Shown here in pieces: positions 4,084-45,927 of a stretch of 64,000 bases of DNA. The notes beneath the pieces were generated by a model, which was not told the origin of the DNA, searched no databases, and worked only from the letters and a program-made list of their open reading frames with translations. How positions within the stretch are numbered: position 1 is the stretch's first letter; the number at the start of each line of letters is the position of its first letter. The position numbers and the translations under genes were made by a program. The stretch is from the IMG/VR virus record IMGVR_UViG_3300042397_001844, positions 8,887 through 72,886 of that record; one strand, written 5' to 3'. Source of the DNA: a virus.

Positions 4084-4158
4084 TCTTAAATATATTTATA
4101 CACGTTGGTATTCAACTCCTATAAATATTGAAAAAATGAAATAAACTACTACTACAAG

Positions 4159-4689
4159 TTAGAAGTGTTTAACTTGTTGTATTTTTTGCTTAATATTTGG
4201 ATAATCTTTCAATCTCTTTCTAACTGCAGCTATATTCTTTTCTGAATCATCTACGAAGAAAACATCATCATACCCCTCTTTTACTCTATCCTCAATCCAA
4301 TCTGCTTTCTTTTCAGGATTATTATCACCCAATGCAATTACCTTCACACCACCTATCCCCAAATCCTTAATGAATTGAGATACGGGCCTTTCAGCTGCTC
4401 TAGCCGTTAAGATATAAACTTCTCTACTTCCACCACTATTAACCATTCTTCTCAATAATTCAACATATCCTTTTATAAGTTCGGGTCTTGTCACTTGCTG
4501 AAAATCTTTGAAATCGAATTCATCACCATCTCTAGCATCATACTTTGCGTATTGACCAGGCGATAGTTTTGATTTCATTCCGTTTCTATGTGTAACATAT
4601 ATGAATGAGTTTGTTTTAACTAACGTATCATCAAAATCAAAAATACGCAGTTTTTTACTTTCTACAAACAATGTTCTTGCTATTGGCAT
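4159..4689 (-). CDS. HAD-superfamily phosphatase-like protein
   Basis: Motif I IFDFDDTL, motif II ILTAR, Lys in PEKKA, motif IV FVDDSEKN. Confidence 0.75.
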   Translation of the reverse strand: MPIARTLFVESKKLRIFDFDDTLVKTNSFIYVTHRNGMKSKLSPGQYAKYDARDGDEFDFKDFQQVTRPELIKGYVELLRRMVNSGGSREVYILTARAAERPVSQFIKDLGIGGVKVIALGDNNPEKKADWIEDRVKEGYDDVFFVDDSEKNIAAVRKRLKDYPNIKQKIQQVKHF

Positions 4690-4690
4690 C

Positions 4691-5014
4691 CTATCCGTTT
4701 ATTTGTCTCTTAGTCTTTGGGAGTGCTTTTTCTAACTTATCGTTCTCTTTTGTAAGGAATTCAACTTTAACACCCAATGCTGCCACTTCTTTTGTAAGTT
4801 CTAACACCATAGTACGAAGTTCATCTTTCTCTTTTGAACTATTTTCTAATAAGGCTTCTAATTTAGAGATACGGTCTTTACAATCGTGTCTGATAAACTC
4901 ATCATCTCTTTCTTTATTTAGTGCTCTCTTTTCATAATATCTCCAAGCACCCGTTCCACCCAATACGGTGATAGCTGTGATTAATACTGAATACATATTT
5001 TCCATACTTAACAA
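4691..5014 (-). CDS. Membrane-anchored coiled-coil protein (holin-like possible)
   Basis: N-terminal TM segment (VLITAITVLGGTGAW) followed by a heptad-rich tail. Confidence 0.5.
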   Translation of the reverse strand: MLSMENMYSVLITAITVLGGTGAWRYYEKRALNKERDDEFIRHDCKDRISKLEALLENSSKEKDELRTMVLELTKEVAALGVKVEFLTKENDKLEKALPKTKRQING

Positions 5015-6045
5015 GTTTTACATTCTTTTATTGGTTCTTCTTCCGTTTGAGGTAACGCTGCAGCTACATGCTCCACTCCTTTATCATCAACGTATTCGTT
5101 TTTTGGTTTTTGTGTCATTCTAGCTGCTACCAATGAGATAACTGCAATTGTGAAAAATATAAAGAAAGCATACATTCCTAATTTACCATATATAGAACCT
5201 TCAGCTTGCCCAGCCCTTCCCAAATCTTGCATTACTTTCATTACTTCGGGTTCTGCTAATTTCTGAATTTCGGTGTAATACCATTTTGTGAATGATGAAT
5301 CTAAATATTGTATCCAACCACCCATAGATACCAATGCGGTAATAATACTCAACATAGTAGCACCAGTTCCTAATTTAACTGCAATCTTATTAATTGTAGC
5401 TTTAAGGTCCTCATCTAAATCGTTTTGTTGTAATAGTGCAGCTGTTGCTTTGTTCATAGCATCTTTACCATTGAAATCATCAGATGATGCTATGTTATCG
5501 ATGTTGAGATGTGATTTAGCTCTATCATATTTTATAGATGCCATCTTAATTGCCAAATTTCTAATCTTCTTTATAGAATCACCCAACCCTTCATTTAATG
5601 TAGATTCTTTTTTAATACTATAATCTTTCTTTATATTAGAAAGTGTTTGTAATGCGTTTTTTAATCTATCTTGAAATAATTTCTTTTGTTCCGATGATTT
5701 AGTTGCCGATAGTTTATCTCTTAATGCTTTAATTCTATTATTAAGGTTTTGTATTCTTTCTCCAGCCGGAACTGCTGCTTCTTTTACTGATTCCAATTTC
5801 AACTTAAAATGGTCCATTACATCCCAAATTTCATTATATCCCATATCACCCAAGTCATCCAATATTTGATTTCTATTTGCATTTGTTTTGCCAGACACAA
5901 ATATAGATACTGCCTTTTTAGTGCTATATGTACCTTTATCGTAGAATTTCATTATTTCCTTTACATGAATATCGTTTTTAGACATTTCATTCATAAAGTC
6001 TTCTCTTACTACTGAGCGGATTATTTCTTTAAGTTGCTTTTCCAT
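5008..6045 (-). CDS. Hypothetical protein with coiled coil and two TM-like segments; candidate internal head protein
   Basis: N-terminal LKEIIRSVVRE; hydrophobic segments ATMLSIITALVSMGGW and MYAFFIFFTIAVISLVAA. Confidence 0.5.
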   Translation of the reverse strand: MEKQLKEIIRSVVREDFMNEMSKNDIHVKEIMKFYDKGTYSTKKAVSIFVSGKTNANRNQILDDLGDMGYNEIWDVMDHFKLKLESVKEAAVPAGERIQNLNNRIKALRDKLSATKSSEQKKLFQDRLKNALQTLSNIKKDYSIKKESTLNEGLGDSIKKIRNLAIKMASIKYDRAKSHLNIDNIASSDDFNGKDAMNKATAALLQQNDLDEDLKATINKIAVKLGTGATMLSIITALVSMGGWIQYLDSSFTKWYYTEIQKLAEPEVMKVMQDLGRAGQAEGSIYGKLGMYAFFIFFTIAVISLVAARMTQKPKNEYVDDKGVEHVAAALPQTEEEPIKECKTC

Positions 6046-6081
6046 TTATATATGTACCAATTTAGATATAAATATAAAGTT

Positions 6082-6978
6082 TTAAGGATTAGATTGTTTT
6101 TTAATCAATTCTTTGGCAAATTTGGTAACTTCTTCTTGTCCTAATGAATTAGCTTTATCATAAAACTCTTTTTTTCTATCAATCGGTTTAATTTTACCAT
6201 CAAACGATGGGGTTCTATTTAAGTAATCTTCGGTAATATACACACCATCCATAACAAATTGCTTAATATCATAACCAATTTTTTTAGCTAATGTGGCTGC
6301 TGACATTCCATATGTATCTTCCGGCCCATATCCTCCAAATGATTCTGGGATTCCTACAAGTTCCCAAAATGATTTAGAATATAATGTATGCATACCACAC
6401 CCAAATTTAATAGTACGAACTTCTCTAGCATTAATTGCACCAATGGTTTGAGTATATGTACCTTCCATAACTTCTTTAGTATCTATTGCATAACCATATG
6501 GTTTATCAAAATAATCAGAGTGACATAATTCATCCCAACTACTATCCCACCACTTTGCCAAAGATGGAGAAAGTATATAAGTACCATCTAATTGATATGA
6601 TATATTTAATTGATGTTTTAACATATGTTCATGAAACAAAATATCAGTATCACAAAATATGAATTGGTCATAATCCAATTTATAACTTTCTCTCTTTTGT
6701 TGAGTAGTTCCCCAACAAGATGTATCCAATATTACTTCATTAATATTTTTTACACCATTAAATAATATTGCAAAACGAGATATAAAATGTCCGTTTTTCA
6801 ATTCACTGTTTTCCCAATCGGTCAATTCTGGGTTTAGATTTAATGTTACTTTTAAGGTTACATCATCATTATCATCCAAATACATTAATGCTCTTTTCAT
6901 TTGATGCATTAATCTTTCAAACATTTCAATCTCCGATGGCATAACGTGTATGCAAATAAGTGTTTTTTTCTTAGCCAT
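6082..6978 (-). CDS. GT-A fold glycosyltransferase-like protein
   Basis: FIFCDTD (DxD) and FGGYGPED motifs. Confidence 0.65.
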   Translation of the reverse strand: MAKKKTLICIHVMPSEIEMFERLMHQMKRALMYLDDNDDVTLKVTLNLNPELTDWENSELKNGHFISRFAILFNGVKNINEVILDTSCWGTTQQKRESYKLDYDQFIFCDTDILFHEHMLKHQLNISYQLDGTYILSPSLAKWWDSSWDELCHSDYFDKPYGYAIDTKEVMEGTYTQTIGAINAREVRTIKFGCGMHTLYSKSFWELVGIPESFGGYGPEDTYGMSAATLAKKIGYDIKQFVMDGVYITEDYLNRTPSFDGKIKPIDRKKEFYDKANSLGQEEVTKFAKELIKKQSNP

Positions 6979-29653: not shown

Positions 29654-30121
29654 CTAGTAGTAAGATTTTAGAATATCAGGCTTAATTCTGATTTCTTGTA
29701 TTTGTTTTATCCCAGATATGTTGTAAGTTCTATATGCGGATGGGTCTTTTTTATATATTGTATTGGATTTGACAAACTGATTAAATATTTTACTTCCCTG
29801 CCTATCGCATAATATTAATAATTGTCCAAGCTTTTGTTCAGTAGCGAAATCGGCATCTGTTAAACCTTTTCTAAATATTGGTTTTAACCATTGAAAAAAC
29901 TTTTCAGGTTTAATATCACTTATTTTTATACAAGTTAATTTTTTATCTGTTGTAATTCCAATAACAAATACAAATGCTGTTTTTGTACCTGATAATGTTT
30001 TTGTTGTACCATCTACATATTCGTAGGATGTAATTTTATATATGTTACGAGGAAGAATCTGCGATTTACTCACAGATTCCTCACTCAATATTAATGGTTT
30101 ATATTGTAATGAAAATGCCAT
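29654..30121 (-). CDS. Hypothetical protein
   Basis: 155 aa ORF coupled to the upstream glycosyltransferase. Confidence 0.55.
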   Translation of the reverse strand: MAFSLQYKPLILSEESVSKSQILPRNIYKITSYEYVDGTTKTLSGTKTAFVFVIGITTDKKLTCIKISDIKPEKFFQWLKPIFRKGLTDADFATEQKLGQLLILCDRQGSKIFNQFVKSNTIYKKDPSAYRTYNISGIKQIQEIRIKPDILKSYY

Positions 30122-31413
30122 TAGTTAATTTTATTCAATTTAGGTATTTGCATTTTCGAGCTATTAACCTTTGGTAAATTAAACGGAACTAATTTTGGTT
30201 GTGCTTTTACATAACTTTCCATTATTTCAATAAATTTATCATTCATCTTATCTAATGTAAAATTATTTAATGTATTAGTTCTCAACCCTTCAGATTTCTT
30301 TAAATAAATATCATAGTTTTTATAAACATCATAGATTTTATTTGCGGCTGTAGAGTAATTTACACTAAACCATTGTGCTTCTTTCATAAGAAATTGGTCA
30401 GCTGCAGATTCATCTACCGATGTCAAACTACCTTCCAATAAAACAGAATGTTCTGGTGGTAGGAAATCCAATTGTCCACTCCAACCACTAGCTATAATCG
30501 GTTTACCGGTCAAAGTAAACTCAGCCATAGGTCTACCATATCCCTCACCCTTAGCGAATGAAATCATCGATTTAACTTTAGGATGGTGGTATAAGTTACT
30601 CATATCACTTTCTTCCATATCCCCATGTACTAAATAAATAGATGGGCATTTATCACCAAATGTTTTAACTACACTTTCTATTTTTTCACGAGTTGCTTCT
30701 CTATCAATTACAGAAAAACCTGCTGATGATGTTTTGATAATAAGACCAGGTCTTTTATCTTTAGGAGTATGTTGAAATACTGTGGCAAATGTTTTAATTG
30801 CCATACCAATATCTTTTCTATCTTGTCCTAAATTTCCTTTCAACCAATGCCCTACAATTAAGAAGTTAAAATCTTCTTTTACATTTTTTAATATATCCTT
30901 ACCACTTCCTTTAGAAAATATATCAGTATCAACTCCTTCAAAAAGAACTTCAATTGGAGTAATTGTTTTAATCTCTCCAACAATCTGTCCACTATCATTA
31001 TCTTTTTGCTGATATACAGTTCCACCTAAATTTTGTTTTGTAAAATTAGATGGTACAATTATCAAATTCATTTTGTTAGAACCATCGATAAAATCCTTTG
31101 GTGCTATTGTAGTTTCAACACCAGCAGTTATACCAATATTATAGTGTCCTTTTGGTTCAAACTCATTTGCTACCGAAACTTGCATAAACACATCCGGCTT
31201 TTCAGTTATTTCAGTAATAACTCTTTCTAACATCCATCTACCAAATTCGCTCTCACCATCAACTTGGTTTTGTGGAGTATTACCCCATCTTAAAGGTATG
31301 ATTTTAATATCATATTTATCCATCTTGCGTAAAGATTTCATTAAATCTCTACAATGGTCACCGTAACCACTACGAGTGAATATAGGTCCTTGAAATACTA
31401 ATGTTGGTTTCAT
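30121..31413 (-). CDS. GT4-type glycosyltransferase
   Basis: SGYG, RKDIG, KGEGYGRPMAE, WSGQLDF. Confidence 0.85.
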   Translation of the reverse strand: MKPTLVFQGPIFTRSGYGDHCRDLMKSLRKMDKYDIKIIPLRWGNTPQNQVDGESEFGRWMLERVITEITEKPDVFMQVSVANEFEPKGHYNIGITAGVETTIAPKDFIDGSNKMNLIIVPSNFTKQNLGGTVYQQKDNDSGQIVGEIKTITPIEVLFEGVDTDIFSKGSGKDILKNVKEDFNFLIVGHWLKGNLGQDRKDIGMAIKTFATVFQHTPKDKRPGLIIKTSSAGFSVIDREATREKIESVVKTFGDKCPSIYLVHGDMEESDMSNLYHHPKVKSMISFAKGEGYGRPMAEFTLTGKPIIASGWSGQLDFLPPEHSVLLEGSLTSVDESAADQFLMKEAQWFSVNYSTAANKIYDVYKNYDIYLKKSEGLRTNTLNNFTLDKMNDKFIEIMESYVKAQPKLVPFNLPKVNSSKMQIPKLNKIN

Positions 31414-31422
31414 TTATATAAC

Positions 31423-32805
31423 TTATTTAATTTTAAATACTTCGAATCTTTCTCTTGGTTTCCAATTTTCAAAAACCGATTCGATTCCGTTTTCTAATTG
31501 TTGACACATATTCTTATGTGTTAAACCCATATCGCCCATAAATGCTTCTCTACCTATCAATCCATTTGCTTTACGAACTTCTTTTGGTGTGTTGTACATT
31601 TCCTCAATTGCTTCAGCAACTTCCTCCACATCAACTCTATCATCCCAAATATAAGGTGTTGGTACTGAACCTGCTAATGCTAATGCTCTACTCCATACAG
31701 GTTTAACCCAAGGACCAGGTTTAGCTTTTTGTTCCCACTTCCTCCACTCATGTAAAGAACCAATTTTAATGTAATCTTCGTGTGTTAATAATTTACCATC
31801 AACTTCAAATCCACATTGGTCTTGCAATCCACCAGTTACGTTTACAATGATGGGAGTTCCCGTCATTACCGATTCTGCAGTTGCCAATCCAAATCCTTCG
31901 TTGTTAGCAATATTGATTGTTACATCTGCTATATTGTAAATAAGATTTAATTCTTCTTGAGGTCTTCTCTTTTCAGAAAATATGATATTACAATTAGGTG
32001 CTACTGCATCAATTACTGCTGGTAAATCAGTTCCATTCTCATCAACAGGTTGTGTGTGCATTACTAATACACATTTATCTGCTTTCTCCTTACCAATCTT
32101 ATCACAAAACTTTTGGAAAGCTACGATAACATCAGCTGGTTGTTTTCTACGGATATTTCTATTACTCCAATATAATACGAAGTCATATTCCTTATCACCT
32201 AAAATTTCTTTACGGAACTCAGCAGGTACTTCAGTTGGTTTGTATAAATTAAAATCAATACCATGTGGTACATAATCAATTTGCCAATCTGCTTTTGGTT
32301 TCCACGTTGGTTTAGTATCTAATGCTGATAATCTTTTAATGATACCATATGTTTGACGAGAGATACAACCAATCCAATCACAACTTTCATAGAAGTTACG
32401 ATTATATAATGGGTCTGGTAAATCATCCCAAATTGCGTAGAATAAAAGTGGGACATTTTGTCTGATTTCATGTTCGATATCATACAACCATGTCCAATAA
32501 CGAGGGTCAGTAAAATGTACAATTGCATCCGGCTTCTCTGCATTGATTAATTGTCTAATCAAATCAGCGTTACCATACCCATTCCAAGGTAAAATCTTTA
32601 CATTAGCATCAGCGATACCATATCTTTCTTGGATATCTTGGCTAACATCTAAAACCTTTCCTGCTTCGGGGTGATTAATTGCGGCTCCTACTTGAAACCA
32701 ATCATATTTGTGTGCAGTTCCCAATACTAATTCTTTGGAAACGGTGGCAATACCACTTGCCATTCTTAAGTCATCTGATAATAACAGAATTTTCTTTTTT
32801 GCCAT
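31423..32805 (-). CDS. GT4-type glycosyltransferase
   Basis: VPHGID, NRNIRRKQ, NEGFGLATAES, TGGLQDQ. Confidence 0.87.
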   Translation of the reverse strand: MAKKKILLLSDDLRMASGIATVSKELVLGTAHKYDWFQVGAAINHPEAGKVLDVSQDIQERYGIADANVKILPWNGYGNADLIRQLINAEKPDAIVHFTDPRYWTWLYDIEHEIRQNVPLLFYAIWDDLPDPLYNRNFYESCDWIGCISRQTYGIIKRLSALDTKPTWKPKADWQIDYVPHGIDFNLYKPTEVPAEFRKEILGDKEYDFVLYWSNRNIRRKQPADVIVAFQKFCDKIGKEKADKCVLVMHTQPVDENGTDLPAVIDAVAPNCNIIFSEKRRPQEELNLIYNIADVTINIANNEGFGLATAESVMTGTPIIVNVTGGLQDQCGFEVDGKLLTHEDYIKIGSLHEWRKWEQKAKPGPWVKPVWSRALALAGSVPTPYIWDDRVDVEEVAEAIEEMYNTPKEVRKANGLIGREAFMGDMGLTHKNMCQQLENGIESVFENWKPRERFEVFKIK

Positions 32806-36432: not shown

Positions 36433-37644
36433 TTATCTCCCTACTTCTGATAGGTATTTAGCTTTCATTTCTTCCCAACTAATTCCAATAGCATCTATAT
36501 AGAATAAGTGTTCGGGTTTAATTCTTCCTTCATCGTGTAGTTTTGTATATCTACTGATTGCATGTTTCTTCCACCATTTGTTAATGTATTCAGTACCTTG
36601 CTTAAACTTATTTTTGATGATTAATTTATCTTCGGTAATTTCGTTACGAAGAAATTCATTTCCATTCTCATACATCATAGCTAAGTACACACCTCTTTTA
36701 AATCCGTGATGATATTCAGTTGCCTTAATACCACACTCTTTGAATATCTTACCTAATATCTTTTGTTTGATACCACTAACAGGTCCGTTTCTTTCATAAC
36801 CCATATTAGCTCCATTACGGGCTCTTTCTTCGGTAATGTTTTCGGAATACCATTCTGCATGATTTTCTTTAATCCATTGATGCCACGGGTCATAGAATTT
36901 ATCATCCGGCTTCAAACTAATCTTACCAGCCGATTCACCTAAAGTTTTGAATAAGGGGATACCATTATATTGAGAGTGAATACCATATAAAGATGTTGTA
37001 CCTACTGCAATCAATATATTCTTATACTTCTCTTTCCAATAGTTTCTAACTTCAGGTACAGTAGTCATCATAGCGATTAATTTACCACCTAAAAAGTTAT
37101 AACCTAATGGTTGAGTACATACAATAGTAGAAGCAATAGTAGTGTTGTTTAACTTACCATCAACAAACTTATTATCTTTAGTCCAACCAATGAAGTTATC
37201 TCTAACTCCCATAGCGGTTACATCGGATGCTAATGAAATTTGTCCTAATAGTTTTCCACTCACTCTATCCTTTACATTAATCTTTACATTACGGCCAGGG
37301 TTTGCTGTAAAATCCATTGTGTGAATCATACGTCTTACCGCTGCCCATTTAGTAGATTCTTTTGGGTCATCCACAATCTCAACGTAAGGGTCTAACGATT
37401 CAATTTCTTTTATCGTTAGCTCCTTATTGTTGATATCAGTTGGTTTCCATTGAGAATCATAATAAGATGCTATTTGGGCTTTTGCTTGAATCATTGTAGG
37501 TTCTTGCAATTCTACCCACTTCTTATACAAAGTTTGTTCTTGTACAGACATTGTCATAAGGTAATCCATATTTTCTATTAACTTTGATTTTTCAGATTCA
37601 AAGTCAAAGACAGGTTTTTGTGGTTCAGTATCCCAAAAGCTCAT
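36433..37644 (-). CDS. DUF4338 / DruA-like protein (Mom/GNAT-related, putative DNA-modifying)
   Basis: PGRN, RDNFIGW, LGGKLIA, TTSLYG..SQYN motifs recognised by eye. Confidence 0.65.
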   Translation of the reverse strand: MSFWDTEPQKPVFDFESEKSKLIENMDYLMTMSVQEQTLYKKWVELQEPTMIQAKAQIASYYDSQWKPTDINNKELTIKEIESLDPYVEIVDDPKESTKWAAVRRMIHTMDFTANPGRNVKINVKDRVSGKLLGQISLASDVTAMGVRDNFIGWTKDNKFVDGKLNNTTIASTIVCTQPLGYNFLGGKLIAMMTTVPEVRNYWKEKYKNILIAVGTTSLYGIHSQYNGIPLFKTLGESAGKISLKPDDKFYDPWHQWIKENHAEWYSENITEERARNGANMGYERNGPVSGIKQKILGKIFKECGIKATEYHHGFKRGVYLAMMYENGNEFLRNEITEDKLIIKNKFKQGTEYINKWWKKHAISRYTKLHDEGRIKPEHLFYIDAIGISWEEMKAKYLSEVGR

Positions 37645-37650
37645 ATTATA

Positions 37651-37830
37651 TTATTTTACGATTGCTCTAATTTGATTAGTTTCTATTGATGGTACATAAA
37701 TGTATATCTCCTTACCAGCATTTTCAATAAGAAATTTTTCTAAATTCAAATTCCATGTTTCAGTTTGATATAACTTACCATCTATTTCAAATACAGGTTC
37801 ACTTATTAATTTATAATGTTGGTTTGCCAT
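37651..37830 (-). CDS. Small hypothetical protein (59 aa, below ORF-track cut-off)
   Basis: MANQHYKLISEPVFEIDGKLYQTETWNLNLEKFLIENAGKEIYIYVPSIETNQIRAIVK fills the gap exactly. Confidence 0.65.
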   Translation of the reverse strand: MANQHYKLISEPVFEIDGKLYQTETWNLNLEKFLIENAGKEIYIYVPSIETNQIRAIVK

Positions 37831-37831
37831 A

Positions 37832-38527
37832 TTACTTAATTTCTACTAAATAGTAATTTGAAGTGTAGTCACCATCAACGAATGCTACGTGCGATAATCC
37901 CTTAGATGAGATTTTCAATGAAGATGATTTAGAACCTTTGTTAGCCATTAAGATAGCTTTCAAATACTTTGCAGAAAATGCAATTGGTTCAATATCTTCT
38001 TTAGCAGTTGCTTCTACTGCAATTGAAATTCGGTTTGAGTTGATTGAAGAATATCCTAAGATAATTTCAGCTTTACCAGCCTTAACCGTAAATGTGAATG
38101 TATCTGAATCAGATAATACACCTTTTGATTTGATGAACTTATTTACAAAGTCATCATCTAAGCTTACTTCCGTATCAAATGAAGGTAATGCTTTTAAATC
38201 AGGTACTGCAGGAATCACCGATGGTGCTGCTAACATATATTGTACCTTTGTTTTCTTATCAGAAAACTTCAATGCTCCAGTAACTTCTTCTACTGCAATT
38301 GTGTCATCCAATACACTCAATAATCCTTTTAATTGAGATGTAGTGTAAATACCAAACTCACCGCTTGGAAATTCACCACCTACTACTGTAACATCACCTA
38401 ATAAGGTTTTGTCATCTGAAATCATTCTTACCGATAAGTTCTTGTCATCGGATTTTACCATAACGGATTCAATCTCACCACCTAAGTTGTAACGATTTAC
38501 GAAACCATCAAATTTGCTTTTGTTCAT
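37832..38527 (-). CDS. Sliding clamp (T4 gp45/PCNA-like); start moved to MNKSK
   Basis: About 231 aa beta-rich protein with EFGIY motif and C-terminal SNYYLV, located between PolB and the clamp loader. Confidence 0.8.
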   Translation of the reverse strand: MNKSKFDGFVNRYNLGGEIESVMVKSDDKNLSVRMISDDKTLLGDVTVVGGEFPSGEFGIYTTSQLKGLLSVLDDTIAVEEVTGALKFSDKKTKVQYMLAAPSVIPAVPDLKALPSFDTEVSLDDDFVNKFIKSKGVLSDSDTFTFTVKAGKAEIILGYSSINSNRISIAVEATAKEDIEPIAFSAKYLKAILMANKGSKSSSLKISSKGLSHVAFVDGDYTSNYYLVEIK

Positions 38528-38563
38528 AATTGAAATTTTAAATTTATGTTTTAATTTGTTATA

Positions 38564-38595
38564 CAAATATACGAAAAATACCTGAAACTACCAAA
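38564..38595 (-). promoter_or_regulatory. Bacteroidota-type promoter
   Basis: TTTG-N20-TATATTTG. Confidence 0.75.
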
Positions 38596-38600
38596 TATTC

Positions 38601-41123
38601 TTAAAAAGAAAAGAATTGTTCAGCGGTTTTTTGTGAAGAAAGTACTGCACCCCACCCTAAAGCCCCATAGAAGTCCTCTAATTTCTTCAATAATTCCCTT
38701 TCGAAGATTTTATCATAATCGATATACGTCCTCACCAAGTCCATTATTTCATCAGGGTCATCATGTCCTTTGAATCCAACCGCATCCAATCCATATGGGT
38801 TTTGTTTCAAATATACCCACTTAATCTTATCACCATCTCTCATTGGAGCGTGCTTAGCTGCACATTTGAAGTGAACTAATAATTGGTTATGTGCAATTGC
38901 TGCTTTAACGTGCGCCGGAGTTCCACTATTAAATTGGAACATTGCTCTATTATCTTTCTTCTTTGGAATATATTTTGATAATTCTTTTACTGCTGAGTTT
39001 TTAGCAATTGAAGTTACATCCATATTAACCAAGTCCTTTTTGAAATCATATATCCTGTCAGTTAGAACCATTTCAGTTTCACCTTGTAGAATTGAAATAA
39101 GGATACCACTCATAAACTTACGGAATTGTGCGGGGTACGATGAACGAACCACATCCAATCCTTTAACTTGCAACGTATCACAAGGAATACCATTCTCCGC
39201 AATAATCCATTGAGCGTATCTTTTCTTAGCAATCCAAATACCACTTCTACTTACGAATTCTTTTTTGATTTGGAATCTATGTTTTGTTTTATCAACATTA
39301 AATACTTTCTCAGCCAATACATCATAAAACTTATTTAAAAAGTCTTGTGTTTCACCAGCAATAGCATCCACCTTTAATGCAATTTCTGCATCAGTCAAAT
39401 TTCTCCAATCTTTATAACGATGGTCTAAGATAGGTACTGCTGAAAAGAATACGGAATCCGTATCAATGTATATGTTAAAGTCTTGTCCGTTTGTTCCTAA
39501 TTCTTTATTGTATTTAATGTTAGCCATATCAGCCGTAGATTTAATTACAGTCTGACCTGTTGTTGTTACAGCCTCAGCGTTGTCCACATCATAGAAACGG
39601 AAAGCCGGCAAACCTAACACACCATACAAAGAGTTCAATAAGATTTTTTGTACCAACTGTCTTTTTTTATAGAAAGCGTATTTCTCTTTGTCACCACTCT
39701 CACCATACTTCTTCTCTAATGCTCTAAACTCCACACGTTGTTTGAACCATAGGTCTAAGATATCAGGAATACAACCTACTTTATCAGTAGTGTAAAGAAC
39801 TCCGTTAGATGATATAGCGTATTTACTTTCATCCAACAATTTTTTAAGATTATCTTTTGTAATACTTTTATCTCCTAAAAAGAAAGTATCAATTTCACCC
39901 TTCATAAACTTTTGTGCATCCCAATTATCAATCTTACCAACTTTAGTTTCTGGTGAAATGTTAGTTGTCATAATGATTGAAGGATATAGTGAAGTTAAAT
40001 CCAAGTCATATATCCATTCGTACTTACCAACGATAGGTGCCTTCACATATGCTCCAATGAATTTCTCTTGGTCATTATCTCTAAGTGCTTGCATTCTTTC
40101 TTGTCTATCCGCAGGTTTGTTAGGAGCTACAATGTTTCTTCTCTTAAGGTAACATAACAATGCACCCTCTAAGTATTTCGATGAATAAACAAAGTCCTCA
40201 TATGGAACGTGTCCAGCGTGACAGATACCTCTAGCCGTATCAATGAATTGTAACTTCTTATCCATATCAGCTACTAACTGAACATCGACTAAGTTATACT
40301 CAATAAACTTTTCAATATCATCTTTGAATAAATCATCTAAGTTACCAGAGTACTCAATCTTACCTCTACCCAATTCCTTCATCGCAATACTATCCAAACG
40401 ATAGTTATCTAATTCCGAATAGGTGAAGTTTTTATATAAAGCTAGGTAATCTAAATAAGATACGCCGGCCATATAGAATCTCTTACGATATGGAGACCAA
40501 AAACATTCACCTATTGGGCTTAATCTATTAGCGTGTTTAACACCTAATAGTCTTTTAATACGATTATATAAATAAGGAGTATCGAAGTTATCAATGTTCC
40601 AACCAGTTACGATTGTTGGATTGATGTATTCATACAATTCTAAATATTTCATACACATATCCCTCTCATCTTTGAAAGGAATTACAGTACGATTGCCGGT
40701 CTTCTTCTCACTCATTTTACCAGCTTTGTCCATAATCAAAACCCAATAATGATTAGTAGCAGAATCATGCAAACCAATTGCCGTTAATTCATTTTCTGAT
40801 TTTTCTACATCAGGCAAACCACTATCCATTTCACACTCAATATCATATGTAAGCGTAACGTGTCCTTCTGATGGTATATCTGAATCAGTATATGTATCAA
40901 CCAAAACTCTAGTGGTTTCGGCTACATCGGATTCAAATAAATTCGGGTCATCTTTTGTGAATTTAAAAATCTTATCTAACTTATCTCCATACAAAGATGT
41001 GTATTGTCCTCTTTGTGCTTTTTCATAAGCATACCTAACATACGGAAAGGTTCTATATCCTAACTTATCATCCCAAATGTGTACTAAATTTCTTTCTCTC
41101 TGATAATAAATATTTTGATACAT
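38601..41123 (-). CDS. Family B DNA polymerase with 3'-5' exonuclease
   Basis: YDIE, GWNIDNFD, YNLVD, DLTSLYPS, KILLNSLYG, YIDTDS, KKRY; C-terminal PIP-like QKTAEQFF. Confidence 0.96.
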   Translation of the reverse strand: MYQNIYYQRERNLVHIWDDKLGYRTFPYVRYAYEKAQRGQYTSLYGDKLDKIFKFTKDDPNLFESDVAETTRVLVDTYTDSDIPSEGHVTLTYDIECEMDSGLPDVEKSENELTAIGLHDSATNHYWVLIMDKAGKMSEKKTGNRTVIPFKDERDMCMKYLELYEYINPTIVTGWNIDNFDTPYLYNRIKRLLGVKHANRLSPIGECFWSPYRKRFYMAGVSYLDYLALYKNFTYSELDNYRLDSIAMKELGRGKIEYSGNLDDLFKDDIEKFIEYNLVDVQLVADMDKKLQFIDTARGICHAGHVPYEDFVYSSKYLEGALLCYLKRRNIVAPNKPADRQERMQALRDNDQEKFIGAYVKAPIVGKYEWIYDLDLTSLYPSIIMTTNISPETKVGKIDNWDAQKFMKGEIDTFFLGDKSITKDNLKKLLDESKYAISSNGVLYTTDKVGCIPDILDLWFKQRVEFRALEKKYGESGDKEKYAFYKKRQLVQKILLNSLYGVLGLPAFRFYDVDNAEAVTTTGQTVIKSTADMANIKYNKELGTNGQDFNIYIDTDSVFFSAVPILDHRYKDWRNLTDAEIALKVDAIAGETQDFLNKFYDVLAEKVFNVDKTKHRFQIKKEFVSRSGIWIAKKRYAQWIIAENGIPCDTLQVKGLDVVRSSYPAQFRKFMSGILISILQGETEMVLTDRIYDFKKDLVNMDVTSIAKNSAVKELSKYIPKKKDNRAMFQFNSGTPAHVKAAIAHNQLLVHFKCAAKHAPMRDGDKIKWVYLKQNPYGLDAVGFKGHDDPDEIMDLVRTYIDYDKIFERELLKKLEDFYGALGWGAVLSSQKTAEQFFSF

Positions 41124-42239
41124 CTATGCTTTTAATTTTATATTTAATTGTTGTAACATTCTACCTTCGTTTTCTGAAAGTTCTAATGCTCTTTCTATAC
41201 TTTTAATCTCTCTATCCTTTCTATAATTATCGTCATCCAATATTTTATCTAGCATTTCAAACAGGTCTTTTTTAAATTTAAAAAACAATCCGTTTGGTTC
41301 TATTTCCTGATAACATAAAGATTCTTGATATATCATTGGAGTACCATTCATCAAACAATCCGTTGCTGATACACTCCAACCATAATTCGTTTGCCTCATT
41401 TGAATACCGACTTTACATTGTTGTAATCTACCATAGTATTCATGCTTTGGAAGTTTAGTTGAATCAATCCAGCTATGTTCCGGCGTTCCTTTTAATTGAG
41501 GCACCCATACACTAAAATCTTGTCTACGTTCTCTATATTCCTCCATCAATTTAATGAAAGTAGGGTATCCTTTATAAGCTGCTGCTCTATGATTGAATAC
41601 TATAATATTTCGTTTTTCTTCTGATGCTGATTCAATTACATTTTGTTTTGGTAGTCCCAAATTCCATACCACCAAAATATCATCTAACTTTTTAACAAAC
41701 TCATCATTGAACCAAATCTTAGCTTCTTCCAATACTCTATTCTTTTGGTCTTGTGTATTAAGGTAACAAGTTTCCATTTGAGATATACCTAATAGTTCAA
41801 TAGGCATCCATCTCCATTTATTCTTTCTATCTTCCGCATTGCAGGTTTTCATTTCCCACCAATGGCAATATCCAATAATTTTTGTGTTGAAATCGTTTTT
41901 GTATCTACCAACTTGAGGCCAATCAGGCAAATGTGAGTAGATAACATCATACTCTAATGTTTCTAATAATCGATTGAAGTCGGGCGGATAGGTACGCATT
42001 TTAATCATATCGCCAGAGAAGGGTAAGATATGCTGCTTTACATTTAGTAAATTCAGTTTCCTAACCGGCTCTGGTAATATAATATTCCAAAAGTATTCAC
42101 CGTGTTGCTCTAAACCTTTTATGTGGTTGTAGATAACATCAACGAATGAATCCTTTTCTATATTAGCGGAATTGGTGATATTAGGTATCACCAAAACACG
42201 CCTTGCTTCTTTACTTAATTGTCCTTCCCAAAATGTCAT
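41124..42239 (-). CDS. GT-B glycosyltransferase, candidate DNA-base glycosyltransferase
   Basis: DVIYSHLP, VFNHR..YKG, WSVSATDCLMNGTP; abuts PolB with no gap. Confidence 0.65.
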   Translation of the reverse strand: MTFWEGQLSKEARRVLVIPNITNSANIEKDSFVDVIYNHIKGLEQHGEYFWNIILPEPVRKLNLLNVKQHILPFSGDMIKMRTYPPDFNRLLETLEYDVIYSHLPDWPQVGRYKNDFNTKIIGYCHWWEMKTCNAEDRKNKWRWMPIELLGISQMETCYLNTQDQKNRVLEEAKIWFNDEFVKKLDDILVVWNLGLPKQNVIESASEEKRNIIVFNHRAAAYKGYPTFIKLMEEYRERRQDFSVWVPQLKGTPEHSWIDSTKLPKHEYYGRLQQCKVGIQMRQTNYGWSVSATDCLMNGTPMIYQESLCYQEIEPNGLFFKFKKDLFEMLDKILDDDNYRKDREIKSIERALELSENEGRMLQQLNIKLKA

Positions 42240-42249
42240 TAATTATTAT

Positions 42250-43725
42250 TTAATTTAAAAGTGATTTGTACTCATCACCACTCATATTCAACTTTTTAAG
42301 ATTATGAGATTTGCTAGTTACTACAAGATTATCATATTCAGTAACACCACCTTTTTTCTTTCCCCAACTTCTAGGAATATAATGGTCACCAACCAACTTC
42401 TTATTATCCAAAGGTTGTCCATCGTAGAAATCAATTCTACCTTGCTCTTCCCATTTTCTGATAATTTGGTCTCTAGTAAAATCACGATTATCAATTTCAA
42501 TTACCCCAAAAGAATCCATATTTTCTTTTAATTCCTTATCCAATATATAAGTGATTGTACCAATTGCTTTTGGATTTTTACCACCAAATAGTTTATTGAA
42601 TGGCTCCATTTGCTCATCATCAGTACCAAACATTAATTCATCAGCATACAACTTACCACCAGTCTTTTTATCGGTATTACTCCATTTATCATATACTTCA
42701 AAAAACTTATTTACATAGGTTTCTATAATAAGCTTTCCGTATTTGTTTTTTAACTCATAACCATATAAAATTAACATTTGAGAAAACATTGGTACAAGTT
42801 TATATTTTCTATCAGATGCAACAGATGTAATGATATCATAAGAAAATTGAATTAGTGGTTCTAAAACCGATTCTTTATAATCTTCAAATTGTTCTTCGGT
42901 AGATAAGATACCATTGGTGGCCTGAGCCTTTGTAATCCAATCGGTGTGTTTTCCTTGTGTAAGTCCATTACGATAACCATTATGTTGTAACATAATCATT
43001 TCGGAAACAAACTCATCTACTTCCATACGGCCGTTGATTACGAACCCTTCGGAGAAATTAGATAATTTCCATTTTTTCTTCTTTCCACTATCAATTAATG
43101 TTCTATCAAATAGTTTATGCTTATTTTCAAATCTTGATATATTACGAATATATTCAGATAATCTACCACGAATAGCGTTTCTCTTTTCTTGTGGTTTCAT
43201 TTCATTTGAATTATTCAAAACATTAATGAATAAATCAGCCGTTTGAGAATCTGATAAGTTTTCGTACCACTTACAGCTAATTCTATAAGAAAGTATTGTT
43301 TGATATAAATTTGGTTCGTTTTGTCTAATCCAATCTATATTCTTTTCGCGCAAATCAATACCATTGATTATAAAAGAGTCATGTTTTGGTAAACAAAACT
43401 CACCATTTATAAAATCCAAAATAGATGTTATTCTTTGCTGCCCGTCAATAAGTTCAAAGATAAAAGATTTTCCTTTCTTAACAACTCTAATATGAATTTC
43501 AGGAATCTTTTTATACGAATTGAGAATAACAGTTAGCATTATACCTTGTTTAAAGGTAAGAGATGCTACTTTTTCTCTTTGATACTCCCTAGCCCCAGTT
43601 TCAATTTTTGGAGTTTTAGAGTCTGTTAAATACGAAATACTAACATCTCCATCGTAAGATGTTGGTTTGTTTGTTTGGCCAAAGCTTTCTTCGGCGATTT
43701 CACAATAAATGAAATTTTCAGTCAT
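42250..43725 (-). CDS. DUF262 (ParB-like) plus HNH protein, GmrSD-like
   Basis: YQR, IDGQQR, F..LNN; C-terminal DHYIP...GG...NL......N. Confidence 0.85.
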   Translation of the reverse strand: MTENFIYCEIAEESFGQTNKPTSYDGDVSISYLTDSKTPKIETGAREYQREKVASLTFKQGIMLTVILNSYKKIPEIHIRVVKKGKSFIFELIDGQQRITSILDFINGEFCLPKHDSFIINGIDLREKNIDWIRQNEPNLYQTILSYRISCKWYENLSDSQTADLFINVLNNSNEMKPQEKRNAIRGRLSEYIRNISRFENKHKLFDRTLIDSGKKKKWKLSNFSEGFVINGRMEVDEFVSEMIMLQHNGYRNGLTQGKHTDWITKAQATNGILSTEEQFEDYKESVLEPLIQFSYDIITSVASDRKYKLVPMFSQMLILYGYELKNKYGKLIIETYVNKFFEVYDKWSNTDKKTGGKLYADELMFGTDDEQMEPFNKLFGGKNPKAIGTITYILDKELKENMDSFGVIEIDNRDFTRDQIIRKWEEQGRIDFYDGQPLDNKKLVGDHYIPRSWGKKKGGVTEYDNLVVTSKSHNLKKLNMSGDEYKSLLN

Positions 43726-43814
43726 AGTTTAAAATTTGCGATAATATCTTAACCTCTAATTTATAATTTTTTTGGGTTTTTAGATATCATCAGTTTTATA
43801 AATTGTTTACTATG

Positions 43815-43846
43815 TAAAGGTACGAATAATTTGTGAATTCGCCAAA
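43815..43846 (-). promoter_or_regulatory. Bacteroidota-type promoter for the DUF262-HNH gene
   Basis: TTTG-N20-TACCTTTA. Confidence 0.65.
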
Positions 43847-43863
43847 TCTTTTTTACTATTTAT

Positions 43864-43892
43864 TATAACTGATTGATTATCAATGAGTTATA
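43864..43892. repeat. Near-perfect palindrome, 13-bp arms with 3-bp spacer
   Basis: TATAACTGATTGA-TTA-TCAATGAGTTATA (one mismatch). Confidence 0.8.
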
Positions 43893-43894
43893 TA

Positions 43895-44695
43895 TTACCA
43901 AAAATTTTCAGTACCTTCCGGTACTTCGTATGTAGTTAGATGATGTACCACTTCTGTGTTGTATGAAGCGGTATCTTTTGGATACGGCCTGATTTCGTGC
44001 TTTAATCGTTTCATCAAATCCTTCTTTTCTTTTTTATCTTGCGCAAGTATTTGAACATATCTATGTTTTGGTGGTTCTTCCCTTCTCCAAAACTCTTTAT
44101 ATCCTTGCTTACCAATTTCCATTTGTAAGTGTGCTAAGTTACCACTACCCCACATTGAAAATACAGTTCTACTATGAATCCATTGATACGGGTCTTTGTG
44201 TAATGATATACCCCAATTTGGCATCAATGCAATATCCGTAGATAATCCTTGATAAATCCAATTGGTAGCTTGGTATATTCCTCCCAAGTGAGCTTGTCCG
44301 TTATCAGCGTATGAAAGTAATACCTTAATATTCTTATCATGCTCTTTTAACCATTTGAAAGATTGTCCTAATGCAAATGATTCAATATTAGAACCATAAC
44401 CATCATCACAATATAAACGTGTCAATTCTAAAATGTTATCTTTGGTCAATCCTTCACAAATAGAAGTGGATGCTTTTGCTCCAACAGGAAACCCATAGAT
44501 TAAACAACCTATAAGTTTATCACCATCAAAGGTATTAGCATCTTCTGATTTGTAATATATTCCAATTGCATATCTACAAGCTGTCCAAGCGTGAGTATAG
44601 TGCTTCTTAACAATAATATCTTTAGCGATACTCTTTGCTATTGGAGCTACATATACTTTGGATGTATCACAATAATTTTTACCTTCTACCTTCAT
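43895..44695 (-). CDS. Mom-family DNA modification protein, paralogue 1
   Basis: HY, LELTRL, N.ES, SYAD..Q.HLGGIYQATNWIYQG, KHRY. Confidence 0.85.
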   Translation of the reverse strand: MKVEGKNYCDTSKVYVAPIAKSIAKDIIVKKHYTHAWTACRYAIGIYYKSEDANTFDGDKLIGCLIYGFPVGAKASTSICEGLTKDNILELTRLYCDDGYGSNIESFALGQSFKWLKEHDKNIKVLLSYADNGQAHLGGIYQATNWIYQGLSTDIALMPNWGISLHKDPYQWIHSRTVFSMWGSGNLAHLQMEIGKQGYKEFWRREEPPKHRYVQILAQDKKEKKDLMKRLKHEIRPYPKDTASYNTEVVHHLTTYEVPEGTENFW

Positions 44696-44933
44696 TCTTT
44701 TTTGCTTGTTTTGCTTTTTCTAAAATAGATAAACTTCTCTCAGCCTTTGCTAATTTTTGTCTTTGTTTCAAATCTTTTACATAACCAGCAGGATATTTGT
44801 TCTCTACTGATATAGGTCCATTTGGGAATTTATCCAAATCGTATTTCCAAATTGATTCACATCCATCATCATCTTTGTAGATATGTTCAAATTTACGTGG
44901 TTTATCCTTAGCGCTGGGTTCTACTCTTGCCAT
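44679..44933 (-). CDS. Hypothetical basic protein between the Mom paralogues
   Basis: 84 aa ORF with its own promoter, overlapping the start of Mom paralogue 1. Confidence 0.6.
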   Translation of the reverse strand: MARVEPSAKDKPRKFEHIYKDDDGCESIWKYDLDKFPNGPISVENKYPAGYVKDLKQRQKLAKAERSLSILEKAKQAKKNEGRR

Positions 44934-44940
44934 AACATTA

Positions 44941-44972
44941 CAAATATACGAAATTAATCTGAAACTACCAAA
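44941..44972 (-). promoter_or_regulatory. Bacteroidota-type promoter, nearly leaderless transcript
   Basis: TTTG-N20-TATATTTG ending 7 nt before the ATG. Confidence 0.7.
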
Positions 44973-45727
44973 TCTATCGGCTCCATTTTATGAACTTCAT
45001 CGATAATATCCAACTCTACCTTTGGATATGGGAATACCTCATGTTTAAGCGATTTTAAGAGGGCTTTACGTTCCTTTTTATCTTTGGTTAGAATATACAC
45101 ATAGCGATGCTTACGGGGTTCTCTTTTAATCCAGAATGGGCTTGTAACCATTGTCTGAATTATCTTTGGGTCATTCGTTCCGTACTTCACATAGGATGTC
45201 CGAGAATGATGCCATTCATCATCTTCACTCCATTTGAAACTCCAACTATCTGACCATCTGATTTTGTTACCTTGATATATCCAATTAGTAGCTTGATATA
45301 CCGTTCCTAAGTGCCCAGCGTTTGGGTCTGAATAAGATATTAGGGCTTTGATACGAGGTACATTAGTTCTTAACCATTCAAAAGATTGTCCAACGAACCA
45401 ACTCTCAATGTTACTACCATATCCATCGAATACGAATAGTCGTGTTAATTCTAATACACCATCTCTAGGAAGTAATTCGGAAATTGATGCGCCGGCATTT
45501 CTACCAACCGGGTCACCATAACAGGCAACTCCAACTAATTGTTCATTCACTCCACTAAAGAATGAATGTTCATCATCGGATATATAAAATAATCCAATGG
45601 CATAGGATACCTTTGTCCATATTCCACTATAATGGTTATTGACAATGATATCCTTTGCTATGTTCTTATTAATCTCTCTAATTGAAAATTTAGAGATATC
45701 GCAATATTGTTTACCTTCTACTTTCAT
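44954..45727 (-). CDS. Mom-family DNA modification protein, paralogue 2
   Basis: HYSG, LELTRL, SNIES, SYSDPNAGHLGTVYQATNWIYQG, KHRY. Confidence 0.85.
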   Translation of the reverse strand: MKVEGKQYCDISKFSIREINKNIAKDIIVNNHYSGIWTKVSYAIGLFYISDDEHSFFSGVNEQLVGVACYGDPVGRNAGASISELLPRDGVLELTRLFVFDGYGSNIESWFVGQSFEWLRTNVPRIKALISYSDPNAGHLGTVYQATNWIYQGNKIRWSDSWSFKWSEDDEWHHSRTSYVKYGTNDPKIIQTMVTSPFWIKREPRKHRYVYILTKDKKERKALLKSLKHEVFPYPKVELDIIDEVHKMEPIDLVVSD

Positions 45728-45927
45728 AAGCTACCACTCCAAAAATGATTTAAATGAGTCCAAGTTTTACGTTGAATTATCTTCAATACATTTGATGGTG
45801 ATACCTTATTGTTTTGGGCAATAACTTTAATATTACGATGACCCATTCTCCATAGGTCTCTAATGATTAAAACTTGTTCCTCTGTCAGTTTTGCTGACGG
45901 GTGTTGCTGCCCTCTTAAAATTGCCAT
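45724..45927 (-). CDS. Small HTH protein resembling the DNA-binding tail of HNH homing endonucleases
   Basis: GQQHPSAKLTEEQV..IR...IA....VS...I...KTWTH. Confidence 0.65.
   Translation of the reverse strand: MAILRGQQHPSAKLTEEQVLIIRDLWRMGHRNIKVIAQNNKVSPSNVLKIIQRKTWTHLNHFWSGSL

Follow-up and report, generated by a model that had tools for sequence, protein, structure and literature searches.

Candidate DNA-modification genes among the replisome genes of an uncultured T4-like aquatic phage, with a glycosyltransferase linked to a DruA-like protein and not to Mom

Phage DNA hypermodifications decide which restriction and defence systems a phage escapes, and they have supplied new enzymology. The stretch of DNA analysed here, hereafter the window, is 64,000 nucleotides long (bases 8887-72886 of the 72.9-kb IMG/VR viral contig IMGVR_UViG_3300042397_001844; CheckV completeness 38%) and carries, among replisome genes, two Mom-family paralogues (MomA and MomB), a DUF262-HNH nuclease, a GT-B glycosyltransferase (hereafter GT) and a DruA/DUF4338-like protein. 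To our knowledge, known DNA glycosylation starts from hydroxymethyl- or hydroxy-pyrimidines, and the locus thus raises the question of what its glycosyltransferase would act on. A preliminary description of this DNA had suggested the Mom product as a possible acceptor. The comparisons below correct this intuitive pairing, and place GT with the DruA-like protein. We assign a probability of about 45% to a reading with two modules, in which the Mom pair would act on adenine while the DruA-like and GT pair would make a second, probably glycosylated, DNA mark. Their genomic context lends good support to the broader view that these genes form a DNA-modification cluster interspersed with the replisome genes.

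If GT acted on the product of Mom, Mom would be looked for beside GT in distant phages as well. Using an alignment of 24 distant GT members of a protein library as query, 508 relatives were found in IMG/VR and the best 80 loci were analysed; two single distant representatives used as queries returned no loci. The 80 loci belong to T4-like marine phages with RegA, gp45, gp44/62, UvsX, gp41, PhoH, MazG and Hsp20, and their family B DNA polymerase (PolB) is 29-33% identical to that of the window. Mom was found in none of the 80 loci (tblastn at 1e-4) and in none of five contigs carrying such loci (fragments, 11-47% complete). In contrast, a DruA-like gene lies directly upstream of GT in 36 loci and upstream with one or two genes between in another 15, while 21 have no DruA-like gene within three genes of GT and eight cannot be read on the upstream side. 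A DruA-like gene is therefore present within three genes upstream of GT in 51 of the 72 readable loci. These DruA-like homologues are 24-30% identical to that of the window and match Pfam DruA, and the frames of directly adjacent pairs overlap by 4 nucleotides in 33 of 36 cases. The flanking genes vary: in some loci the pair has gp44 on one side and gp62-RegA on the other, in some it is flanked by PolB and MazG-UvsX, and elsewhere the pair has other neighbours. Where genes stand between its two members, they belong to the families that fill a variable slot next to GT in the window's own clade, namely DUF262-HNH (41-54% identity; phmmer 3.5e-131), c26 (1.6e-115) and S1 (1e-38 to 1e-83). From this pairing, and from the distribution among cultured phages described below, the conserved unit is therefore DruA-like plus GT, and GT is linked to the DruA-like protein, not to Mom. 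The literature on DUF4338, DruA and Mom-like enzymes with phage glycosyltransferases, as searched here, describes no DruA-GT module.

Additionally, other distant GT homologues adjoin a Dam-type methylase, an N6_N4 methylase or a TET-associated glycosyltransferase, hereafter TAGT (L155, L170 and L134-L169; TAGT in L155 and L170). In two loci, L100 (4853-5242) and L140 (cluster d47), the DruA-like and DUF262-HNH genes upstream of GT are separated by a gene for a 129-aa protein resembling cytidylyltransferases (TagD-like), which hints at a CDP-activated donor.

The same genes were followed among nearer relatives. A PolB search of IMG/VR gave 249 relatives, the best 80 of which (PolB 72-100% identical; loci labelled L plus a number) were compared by tblastn, clustering of open reading frames and Pfam. 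The usual layout is thioredoxin, a 67-aa gene, MomA (followed by an 84-aa gene), MomB (followed by a variable gene), GT, PolB, the sliding clamp and the DruA-like gene. The slot from thioredoxin to PolB is bounded on both sides in 36 loci; 30 of these have two Moms and GT, six lack both, and none is mixed. Similarly, GT status and the slot behind the clamp are both readable in 51 loci, and GT and the DruA-like gene are both present in 46, both missing in five and discordant in none. On a PolB tree of 73 rows (quick IQ-TREE run; nine of 82 sources were omitted, with PolB cut or containing a stop), the presence of Mom, GT and the DruA-like gene changes three times, always jointly, and two of the changes fall on well-supported branches. 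The neighbourhood comparison that had been proposed as a check thus shows the two Moms, GT and DruA co-occurring without exception in this clade. Here the DruA-GT unit is split by PolB and the clamp, and yet both of its members are gained and lost together. GT itself occurs in two types: the window's type c5 is about 30% identical to type c4, with 50 invariant positions in common, and the type switches nine times across 57 rows of the PolB tree, a pattern typical of an arms-race locus.

The placement of modification genes among replisome genes, which the preliminary description had noticed, agrees with the content of both slots in sister phages. The Mom-less loci L073-L080 have three N6_N4 DNA methylases (E 1e-43 to 1e-46) plus TAGT (PF20691; 4.6e-32) or a 496-aa gene in the clamp slot, and L082 has a PALP enzyme and a methylase at the same places. 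The thioredoxin-PolB and clamp-clamp loader slots are therefore DNA-modification hot spots. The TAGT genes of L079 (7062-8297) and L080 (8272-9507) accompany the three N6_N4 methylases, and another, in L064 (1207-2016), lies between MomB and the variable gene; no Tet/JBP gene is present in these three loci. L083, another locus without Mom, GT and DruA, has directly upstream of PolB (3116-6163) a gene weakly similar to thymidylate synthase, an amidotransferase of the Asn-synthase/GATase type and a PALP enzyme, a set that resembles thymidine hypermodification clusters.

The acceptor known from other glycosylated phage DNA was sought in the contig and its relatives. The 72.9-kb contig, rated 38% complete, has no thymidylate-synthase or Tet/JBP match, which agrees with the hydroxymethylase and TET genes having been reported as missing from the window. 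Four relatives with the full gene set, two of them 100% and two about 80% complete, carry one thymidylate synthase homologue each, which passes the ThyA model TIGR03284 with 283-338 bits (cut-off 108); the four have no Tet/JBP match, in a search in which the control genomes were likewise silent. Because canonical ThyA occurs alone and there is no Tet/JBP match, the usual hydroxymethyl- or hydroxy-pyrimidine acceptors seem to be absent. The candidates that seem to be left are the product of the DruA-like protein, the Mom product and a non-DNA substrate. Among the ThyA genes of L084-L087, three of the four match over 324-377 aa, in open frames of 333-383 aa, and the hidden Markov model match is broken into two or three stretches, which suggests an inserted segment.

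GT has only sub-threshold matches to Pfam GT4 and GT1 (E about 1e-3; 19.6 and 18.4 bits against cut-offs of 28.5 and 26.4) and no match to Pfam TAGT, while a distant homologue in L102 passes the cut-off (27.0 against 26.4 bits). Its AlphaFold2 model (mean predicted local distance difference test, pLDDT, 84.4; predicted template modelling score, pTM, 0.80) has the two-Rossmann GT-B fold. The best Foldseek match in the PDB is MshA (3c4q; E 4.9e-14, TM-score 0.70), followed by BshA, PglA and PimA, and all 50 PDB matches listed are GT-B enzymes, the closest resemblance being to retaining GT4; tetrahydrobiopterin and selenosugar glycosyltransferases are also among the best matches, and the glycosyltransferase of phage HY126 (9ir0) is at rank 27. 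The family has 37 invariant positions over 34 sequences at identities down to about 28%. Clustered at 50% identity, its members in a library of 1.84 billion proteins make up 761 clusters; tblastn against 50,697 records of cultured phages found no match, and 185,579 prokaryote genomes gave one, on a 1.7-kb contig of a Bacteroidetes metagenome-assembled genome (pattern-based scan of limited sensitivity). By these searches of cultured phages, proteins and prokaryote genomes the family looks essentially phage-only.

Both Mom paralogues are well above the Pfam Mom (PF25680) cut-off of 27.1 bits (MomA, 149.5 bits, E 1.2e-43; MomB, 152.6 bits, E 1.5e-44), and the 72.9-kb contig has two Mom matches in all. 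They are 49% identical, each is conserved across the clade, and they match Mu Mom (PDB 8bv8) with E-values of 4.6e-11 (MomA) and 4.5e-6 (MomB). According to the accessible text of Silva et al. (2026; PMC13219725), Mu Mom is a GNAT-fold dimer that moves glycine from Gly-tRNA (a donor revised there from acetyl-CoA) onto adenine N6 of double-stranded DNA, and the adduct rearranges to carbamoylmethyl-adenine (6-NcmdA); R111, S124 and R151 are essential, and H58, Y59, D149, Y159 and W48 are important. MomA and MomB both keep the equivalents of H58, Y59, R111, S124, D149 and Y159 in the alignment to 8bv8, whose chain index was taken as the paper numbering minus 9, inferred from matching letters. The motifs HY, ELTRL, NIES, SY[SA]D and YQATNW are invariant in 19 of 19 clade sequences. 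The identification of both genes as Mom is therefore upheld, since the residues essential in Mu Mom are kept in both with the exception of R151, and MomA and MomB are very likely active adenine-N6 modifiers.

The DruA-like protein matches Pfam DruA (PF14236; E 3.3e-19, 69.6 bits, cut-off 27) and PADLOC DruA (E 1.2e-15), is 75-100% identical across the window's clade and, in a deep alignment, shares an invariant core, QPxGxNxLGGKL plus TTSLYG, in both phage groups. It was found without GT in 31 cultured phage records (25 Synechococcus, three Pelagibacter, two marine virus and one cyanophage), where the gene is likewise located in replication/recombination clusters. A DruA-like gene that occurs without GT, together with a GT that mostly occurs with a DruA-like gene, is the pattern expected if the DruA-like protein does the first step. 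DUF4338 is described as a GNAT domain in the part of PMC10853773 that is accessible, and the DruA-like homologue of cyanophage S-SCSM2R is called 'structurally similar to Mu-mom' in that of PMC12801897; six Synechococcus phages with DruA-like proteins are mentioned in the Phold preprint. One relative, L032, has in its Mom-to-GT slot (3140-4333) a second, short DruA-like gene (238 aa) together with a DUF6998 gene.

On the two-module reading, both modules would be inserted in the replisome cluster of a T4-like aquatic myophage. In the first, by homology to Mu Mom, MomA and MomB would each take an aminoacyl group from charged tRNA and attach it to N6 of adenine in double-stranded DNA after replication, and the mark would shield the genome from restriction. 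In the second, the DruA-like protein, as a GNAT-type enzyme, would put a first group on DNA and GT would add a sugar to that group, which would parallel T-even hydroxymethylation followed by glucosylation without a hydroxymethyl pyrimidine. The comparisons show what the genes are, which catalytic residues they keep, that they co-occur, that cassettes are swapped and that DruA and GT are linked; the action of the second module on DNA, and the chemistry of both, are inferred. If true, a GNAT plus GT route would be a new chemical class of DNA glycosylation and would give a first functional handle on DruA/DUF4338, a component of Druantia defence. Since marine and freshwater T4-like phages, among them relatives of cultured pelagiphages and cyanophages, commonly carry the DruA-GT module, it could affect host range and the recovery of genomes by sequencing.

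Several observations weigh against the two-module reading. The fold of GT matches MshA, BshA, PglA and PimA, generic GT4 enzymes whose acceptors are small molecules, lipids or glycans; the 50 PDB matches listed for its model include neither the alpha- nor the beta-glucosyltransferase of T4, and in BFVD its sole 'DNA alpha-glucosyltransferase' match is at rank 25 (TM-score 0.52). Among readable distant loci, 21 of 72 have GT without a nearby DruA-like gene. The negatives of the window's clade come from just two or three independent events, too few for a sign test on independent pairs to reach significance (p = 0.5). At the equivalent of Mu R151, MomA has N and MomB has G, and the Mu dimer residue W48 is replaced by S22 in MomB (the MomA alignment to 8bv8 begins one residue past this position). 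For the DruA-like protein, comparison with Mom profiles (hhalign, with shallow and deeper alignments) gave a non-significant probability of 0.7-1%, a profile search against PDB sequences gave no credible match, and the AlphaFold2 model, built on a 14-row alignment, has a pLDDT of 41.6 and was not used for a fold search; in the ESM Atlas, this protein and a 619-aa variable-slot protein found their own family alone or scores below 0.8. Of the three Mom/GNAT-type enzymes first counted at this locus, two are thus borne out as Moms, while the assignment of the DruA-like protein as the third comes from the literature and finds no significant counterpart in these comparisons. Finally, non-DNA glycosylation certainly occurs in this phage, because the window holds a 23-kb glycan cluster and a collagen-repeat protein.

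Three other explanations were weighed. A single multistep mark, in which a Mom paralogue makes an N6-acyl or N6-aminoacyl adenine and GT glycosylates that adduct, would account for the contiguity of MomB, the variable gene and GT in the window, for the two Moms and GT in 30 of 30 Mom-bearing bounded loci and for complete relatives without a hydroxymethylase or Tet/JBP match; moreover, diverged Moms without Mu R151 could use a donor other than glycine, for example a hydroxy amino acid. However, the GT family occurs without Mom in all 80 distant loci and all five of their partial contigs, with the DruA-like gene upstream in most readable cases, and in the rearranged loci L059, L062 and L072 the Moms are still beside thioredoxin, about 9-11 kb away from the variable gene and GT, which remain next to PolB. 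In addition, the nine swaps of GT type took place while the Moms stayed 92-100% identical among nearer relatives, and the known Mom product, carbamoylmethyl-adenine, has no hydroxyl as far as the accessible text of PMC13219725 describes it. The Mom product as acceptor of GT is thus very improbable. It is also decidedly unlikely, if less so, that there is no system at all and that independent anti-restriction, defence or selfish genes have collected in hyperplastic replisome gaps, their co-occurrence reflecting descent and linkage. The scarcity of independent presence/absence events, the sharp cassette breakpoints, the DruA-like gene standing alone in cultured phages and the HNH and faint GIY-YIG/SegE signatures of the variable genes would all fit this explanation, since T-even free-standing homing endonucleases bear HNH/GIY-YIG-type signatures. 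It does not readily explain why the DruA-like gene and GT are adjacent in at least four flanking contexts, with the 4-nucleotide overlap in 33 of 36 pairs, nor why their losses in the clade are joint although PolB and the clamp separate them.

A real DruA-GT pair with a target other than DNA (a replisome or host protein, tRNA, a nucleotide or a small metabolite) is unlikely but deserves more weight. GNAT enzymes mostly acylate proteins or small molecules, the best Foldseek matches of GT include MshA and BshA, enzymes of low-molecular-weight thiol pathways, as well as tetrahydrobiopterin and selenosugar glycosyltransferases, and a large glycan cluster is present in the phage. Furthermore, the DruA-like protein is widespread in cyanophages and pelagiphages, for which no report of hypermodified DNA was met in the accessible portions of the literature. 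On the other hand, the pair is always inside replication-gene clusters, its position is interchangeable with DNA methylases and TAGT, some GT homologues adjoin such genes (L155, L170 and L134-L169), the neighbouring cassettes are DNA nucleases, and hardly any cellular genome has a member of the GT family. The two-module reading could also be widened, which we consider unlikely as a whole, to a widespread two-step pathway of aquatic T4-like phages in which the DruA-like protein and GT build a glycosylated acyl or aminoacyl base adduct in the absence of any hydroxymethyl pyrimidine, DruA of Druantia type I also marks DNA, and the nuclease cassettes, DUF262-HNH included, form a 'restriction' arm that cuts DNA lacking the mark or bearing a rival mark, making up a phage-borne modification-dependent self/non-self system.

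Comparison with known systems places the two modules differently. MomA and MomB are like Mu Mom in their scores far above the Pfam cut-off, their conserved catalytic residues and their anti-restriction context as phage genes, but they are tandem paralogues (49% identical) with a small gene before each, have N or G in place of R151 and, in MomB, do not keep W48. In addition, they lie in the early/replication cluster of a lytic T4-like phage, whereas Mom of Mu is at the late end of a transposable phage. For the second module, the closest parallels are the glucosylation of hydroxymethylcytosine in T-even phages and the arabinosyl-5-hydroxycytosine described for phages RB69, DLP3 and HY126 in the accessible text of PMC13326640. 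Similar to these, a phage GT-B enzyme is encoded among replication genes, and the allelic diversity of GT fits an arms race with restriction. In contrast to these, the complete relatives of the window lack a thymidylate synthase homologue of hydroxymethylase or hydroxylase type, and GT has no specific similarity to the T4 alpha- or beta-glucosyltransferase. GT would attach its sugar to another type of group than the enzymes of the T-even and RB69-type systems do, because the conserved neighbour of GT is a putative GNAT-type enzyme. TAGT (PF20691) occupies the same slots in sister phages (L079, L080 and L064) and adjoins GT homologues in L155 and L170, but GT lacks a TAGT match, has the GT-B fold and has no Tet/JBP partner. 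The DruA-like protein has a significant match to the family of DruA from type I Druantia, whose domain is called GNAT-like in the accessible part of PMC10853773, but it is phage-encoded, lies in a replisome cluster and is paired with a glycosyltransferase; no DruB, DruC, DruD or DruE helicase is near it, its neighbours being the clamp, a 118-aa gene, dUTPase and the clamp loader.

The preliminary description had also counted DUF262-HNH in the set, of which it is not a fixed member. The gene between MomB and GT belongs to more than 10 unrelated families across the clade loci, and five loci have no gene there. Between the window and L004 (PolB 100%, GT 99% identical) solely 42257-43794 is replaced, and between the window and L007 (PolB 98%) the replaced stretch is 41148-43859, which comprises the variable gene and GT; breakpoints relative to L004 and L005 set the limits of the cassette DNA at about 42257-43794, and the replacement boundaries are sharp. 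The variable families include S2, which is DUF262-HNH itself; S4, which is HNH-ended; S1 (425-443 aa), with a faint GIY-YIG/homing-endonuclease signal (PADLOC HEase 0.0023; Pfam GIY-YIG and SegE E 0.12-0.18); the related S3 and S5 (about 600 aa); and several singletons. DUF262-HNH is therefore an optional nuclease cassette. It matches GmrSD_N just below the cut-off (E 2.3e-7; 31.6 against 33.2 bits), NsnA (7.7e-7) and REase_II (1.5e-5) in PADLOC and, with its C-terminal HNH, phrog_1035 (5e-5) and the HNH stretch of Cas9d (2.6e-5). The DGQQR motif at residue 94 and a YQR motif are conserved, all 12 family members compared share D447, H448, N466 and N475, and there are 330 full-length metagenomic homologues (46-100% identity), most with a precomputed PF03235 match.

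GmrSD/BrxU-type DUF262 nucleases carry out type IV restriction of glucosylated DNA, and T4-like phages carry free-standing homing endonucleases (Seg and Mob genes); the cassette has features of both. Similar to GmrSD and BrxU, the protein has a probable N-terminal DUF262/ParB-like domain, the DGQQR motif and a C-terminal His-Me-type nuclease, but its C-terminus is a classical HNH (Cas9/EndoVII type) with no DUF1524 match at an E threshold of up to 10, and its gene is phage-borne, sporadic and interchangeable with unrelated genes. Similar to the Seg and Mob genes, the cassettes are optional nuclease genes between conserved genes, with sharp boundaries and with families recurring at the locus in distant phages; however, the cassette proteins are much larger (400-680 aa), have a ParB-like NTP-binding domain and keep the catalytic residues intact (12 of 12). 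A free-standing homing endonuclease targeting the locus and a modification-aware nuclease are about equally likely.

The coordinates, identities and common orientation of the five genes, as first described, were confirmed, the identities by Pfam, PADLOC and PHROG matches, by the GT-B model and by motifs; the GT stop (TAG) lies directly 5' of the PolB ATG. All genes of the region are on the minus strand (Table 1), in the transcription order ribonucleotide reductase, thioredoxin, 67-aa gene, MomA, 84-aa gene, MomB, DUF262-HNH, GT, PolB, sliding clamp, DruA/DUF4338-like gene, 118-aa gene, dUTPase and clamp loader. The stop of the 67-aa gene overlaps the MomA start by 4 nucleotides, and the DruA-like gene lies 188 bases past the clamp gene. 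The 67-aa gene follows thioredoxin in nearly all relatives and is not Mom-specific, because it is also kept in Mom-less ones such as L073 and L079. The 84-aa protein has no match in Pfam or PHROG, is 51-99% identical in nearer relatives and is missing from more distant Mom-bearing ones. A promoter and terminator scan and a search for the T4 late-promoter motif gave counts at or below chance, so that no operon structure is claimed, and a tRNA scan of the window found no tRNA gene. A search for sequencing runs listed no nanopore library covering this region.

Table 1. Positions of the modification genes, their replisome neighbours and the glycan region in the window.
Feature	Position	Strand	Remarks
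Glycan cluster	4159-29582		23 kb, sugar-nucleotide and glycan genes
Two further GT-B genes	30121-32805		phrog_2170; one with weak GT4-conflict match (3e-6)
DruA/DUF4338-like protein	36433-37644	minus	Pfam DruA (PF14236); PADLOC DruA
Sliding clamp	37832-38566	minus	phrog_223, E 7.4e-13
Family B DNA polymerase (PolB)	38601-41123	minus	Pfam DNA_pol_B and its exonuclease domain; anchor for comparisons
GT-B (GT4-like) glycosyltransferase, 'c5' type	41124-42239	minus	AlphaFold2 model and Foldseek
DUF262 (ParB-like) and HNH nuclease	42250-43725	minus	swappable cassette
MomB	43895-44695	minus	Pfam Mom PF25680
84-aa protein between both Moms	44679-44933	minus	end overlaps MomB start by 17 nucleotides
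MomA	44954-45727	minus	Pfam Mom PF25680, phrog_1384
67-aa protein, weak helix-turn-helix signal	45724-45927	minus	MarR E 0.0071, HTH_28 E 0.085; first gene of modification slot

The window also encodes gp32, a UvsX-like RecA, a DnaB-type helicase and a flap endonuclease, and its PolB shares 52% identity with the polymerase of Microcystis phage Mel-JY01 and about 32% with those of T4-like cyanophages. The replisome backbone of Mel-JY01 is the same (thioredoxin, PolB, clamp, clamp loader and PD-(D/E)XK nuclease, then glycosyltransferases), and this phage has no match to Mom, to GT or to DruA. The source of the window thus appears to be an uncultured T4-like aquatic myophage.

The glycan cluster encodes four GT2, one GT11 and one GT1 glycosyltransferase, four epimerase/dehydratases, three methyltransferases, a HAD and nucleotidyl-transferase fusion, a PfkB kinase, an AMP-binding enzyme, an SDR, an aminotransferase and a UDP-GlcNAc 2-epimerase, and is followed by a 693-aa collagen-repeat protein; its role is likely the glycosylation of a fibre or of the host surface. 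The two further GT-B genes near it were considered as members of the modification system and dropped, as they persist in Mom-less relatives and in Mel-JY01, where GT does not, and they appear to belong to the glycan/collagen region. At the other end of the modification genes, both ribonucleotide reductase subunits of L065-L068, L073 and L081 are 30-40% identical to those of the window, with flanking genes at about 75%, which looks like an allelic or class replacement.

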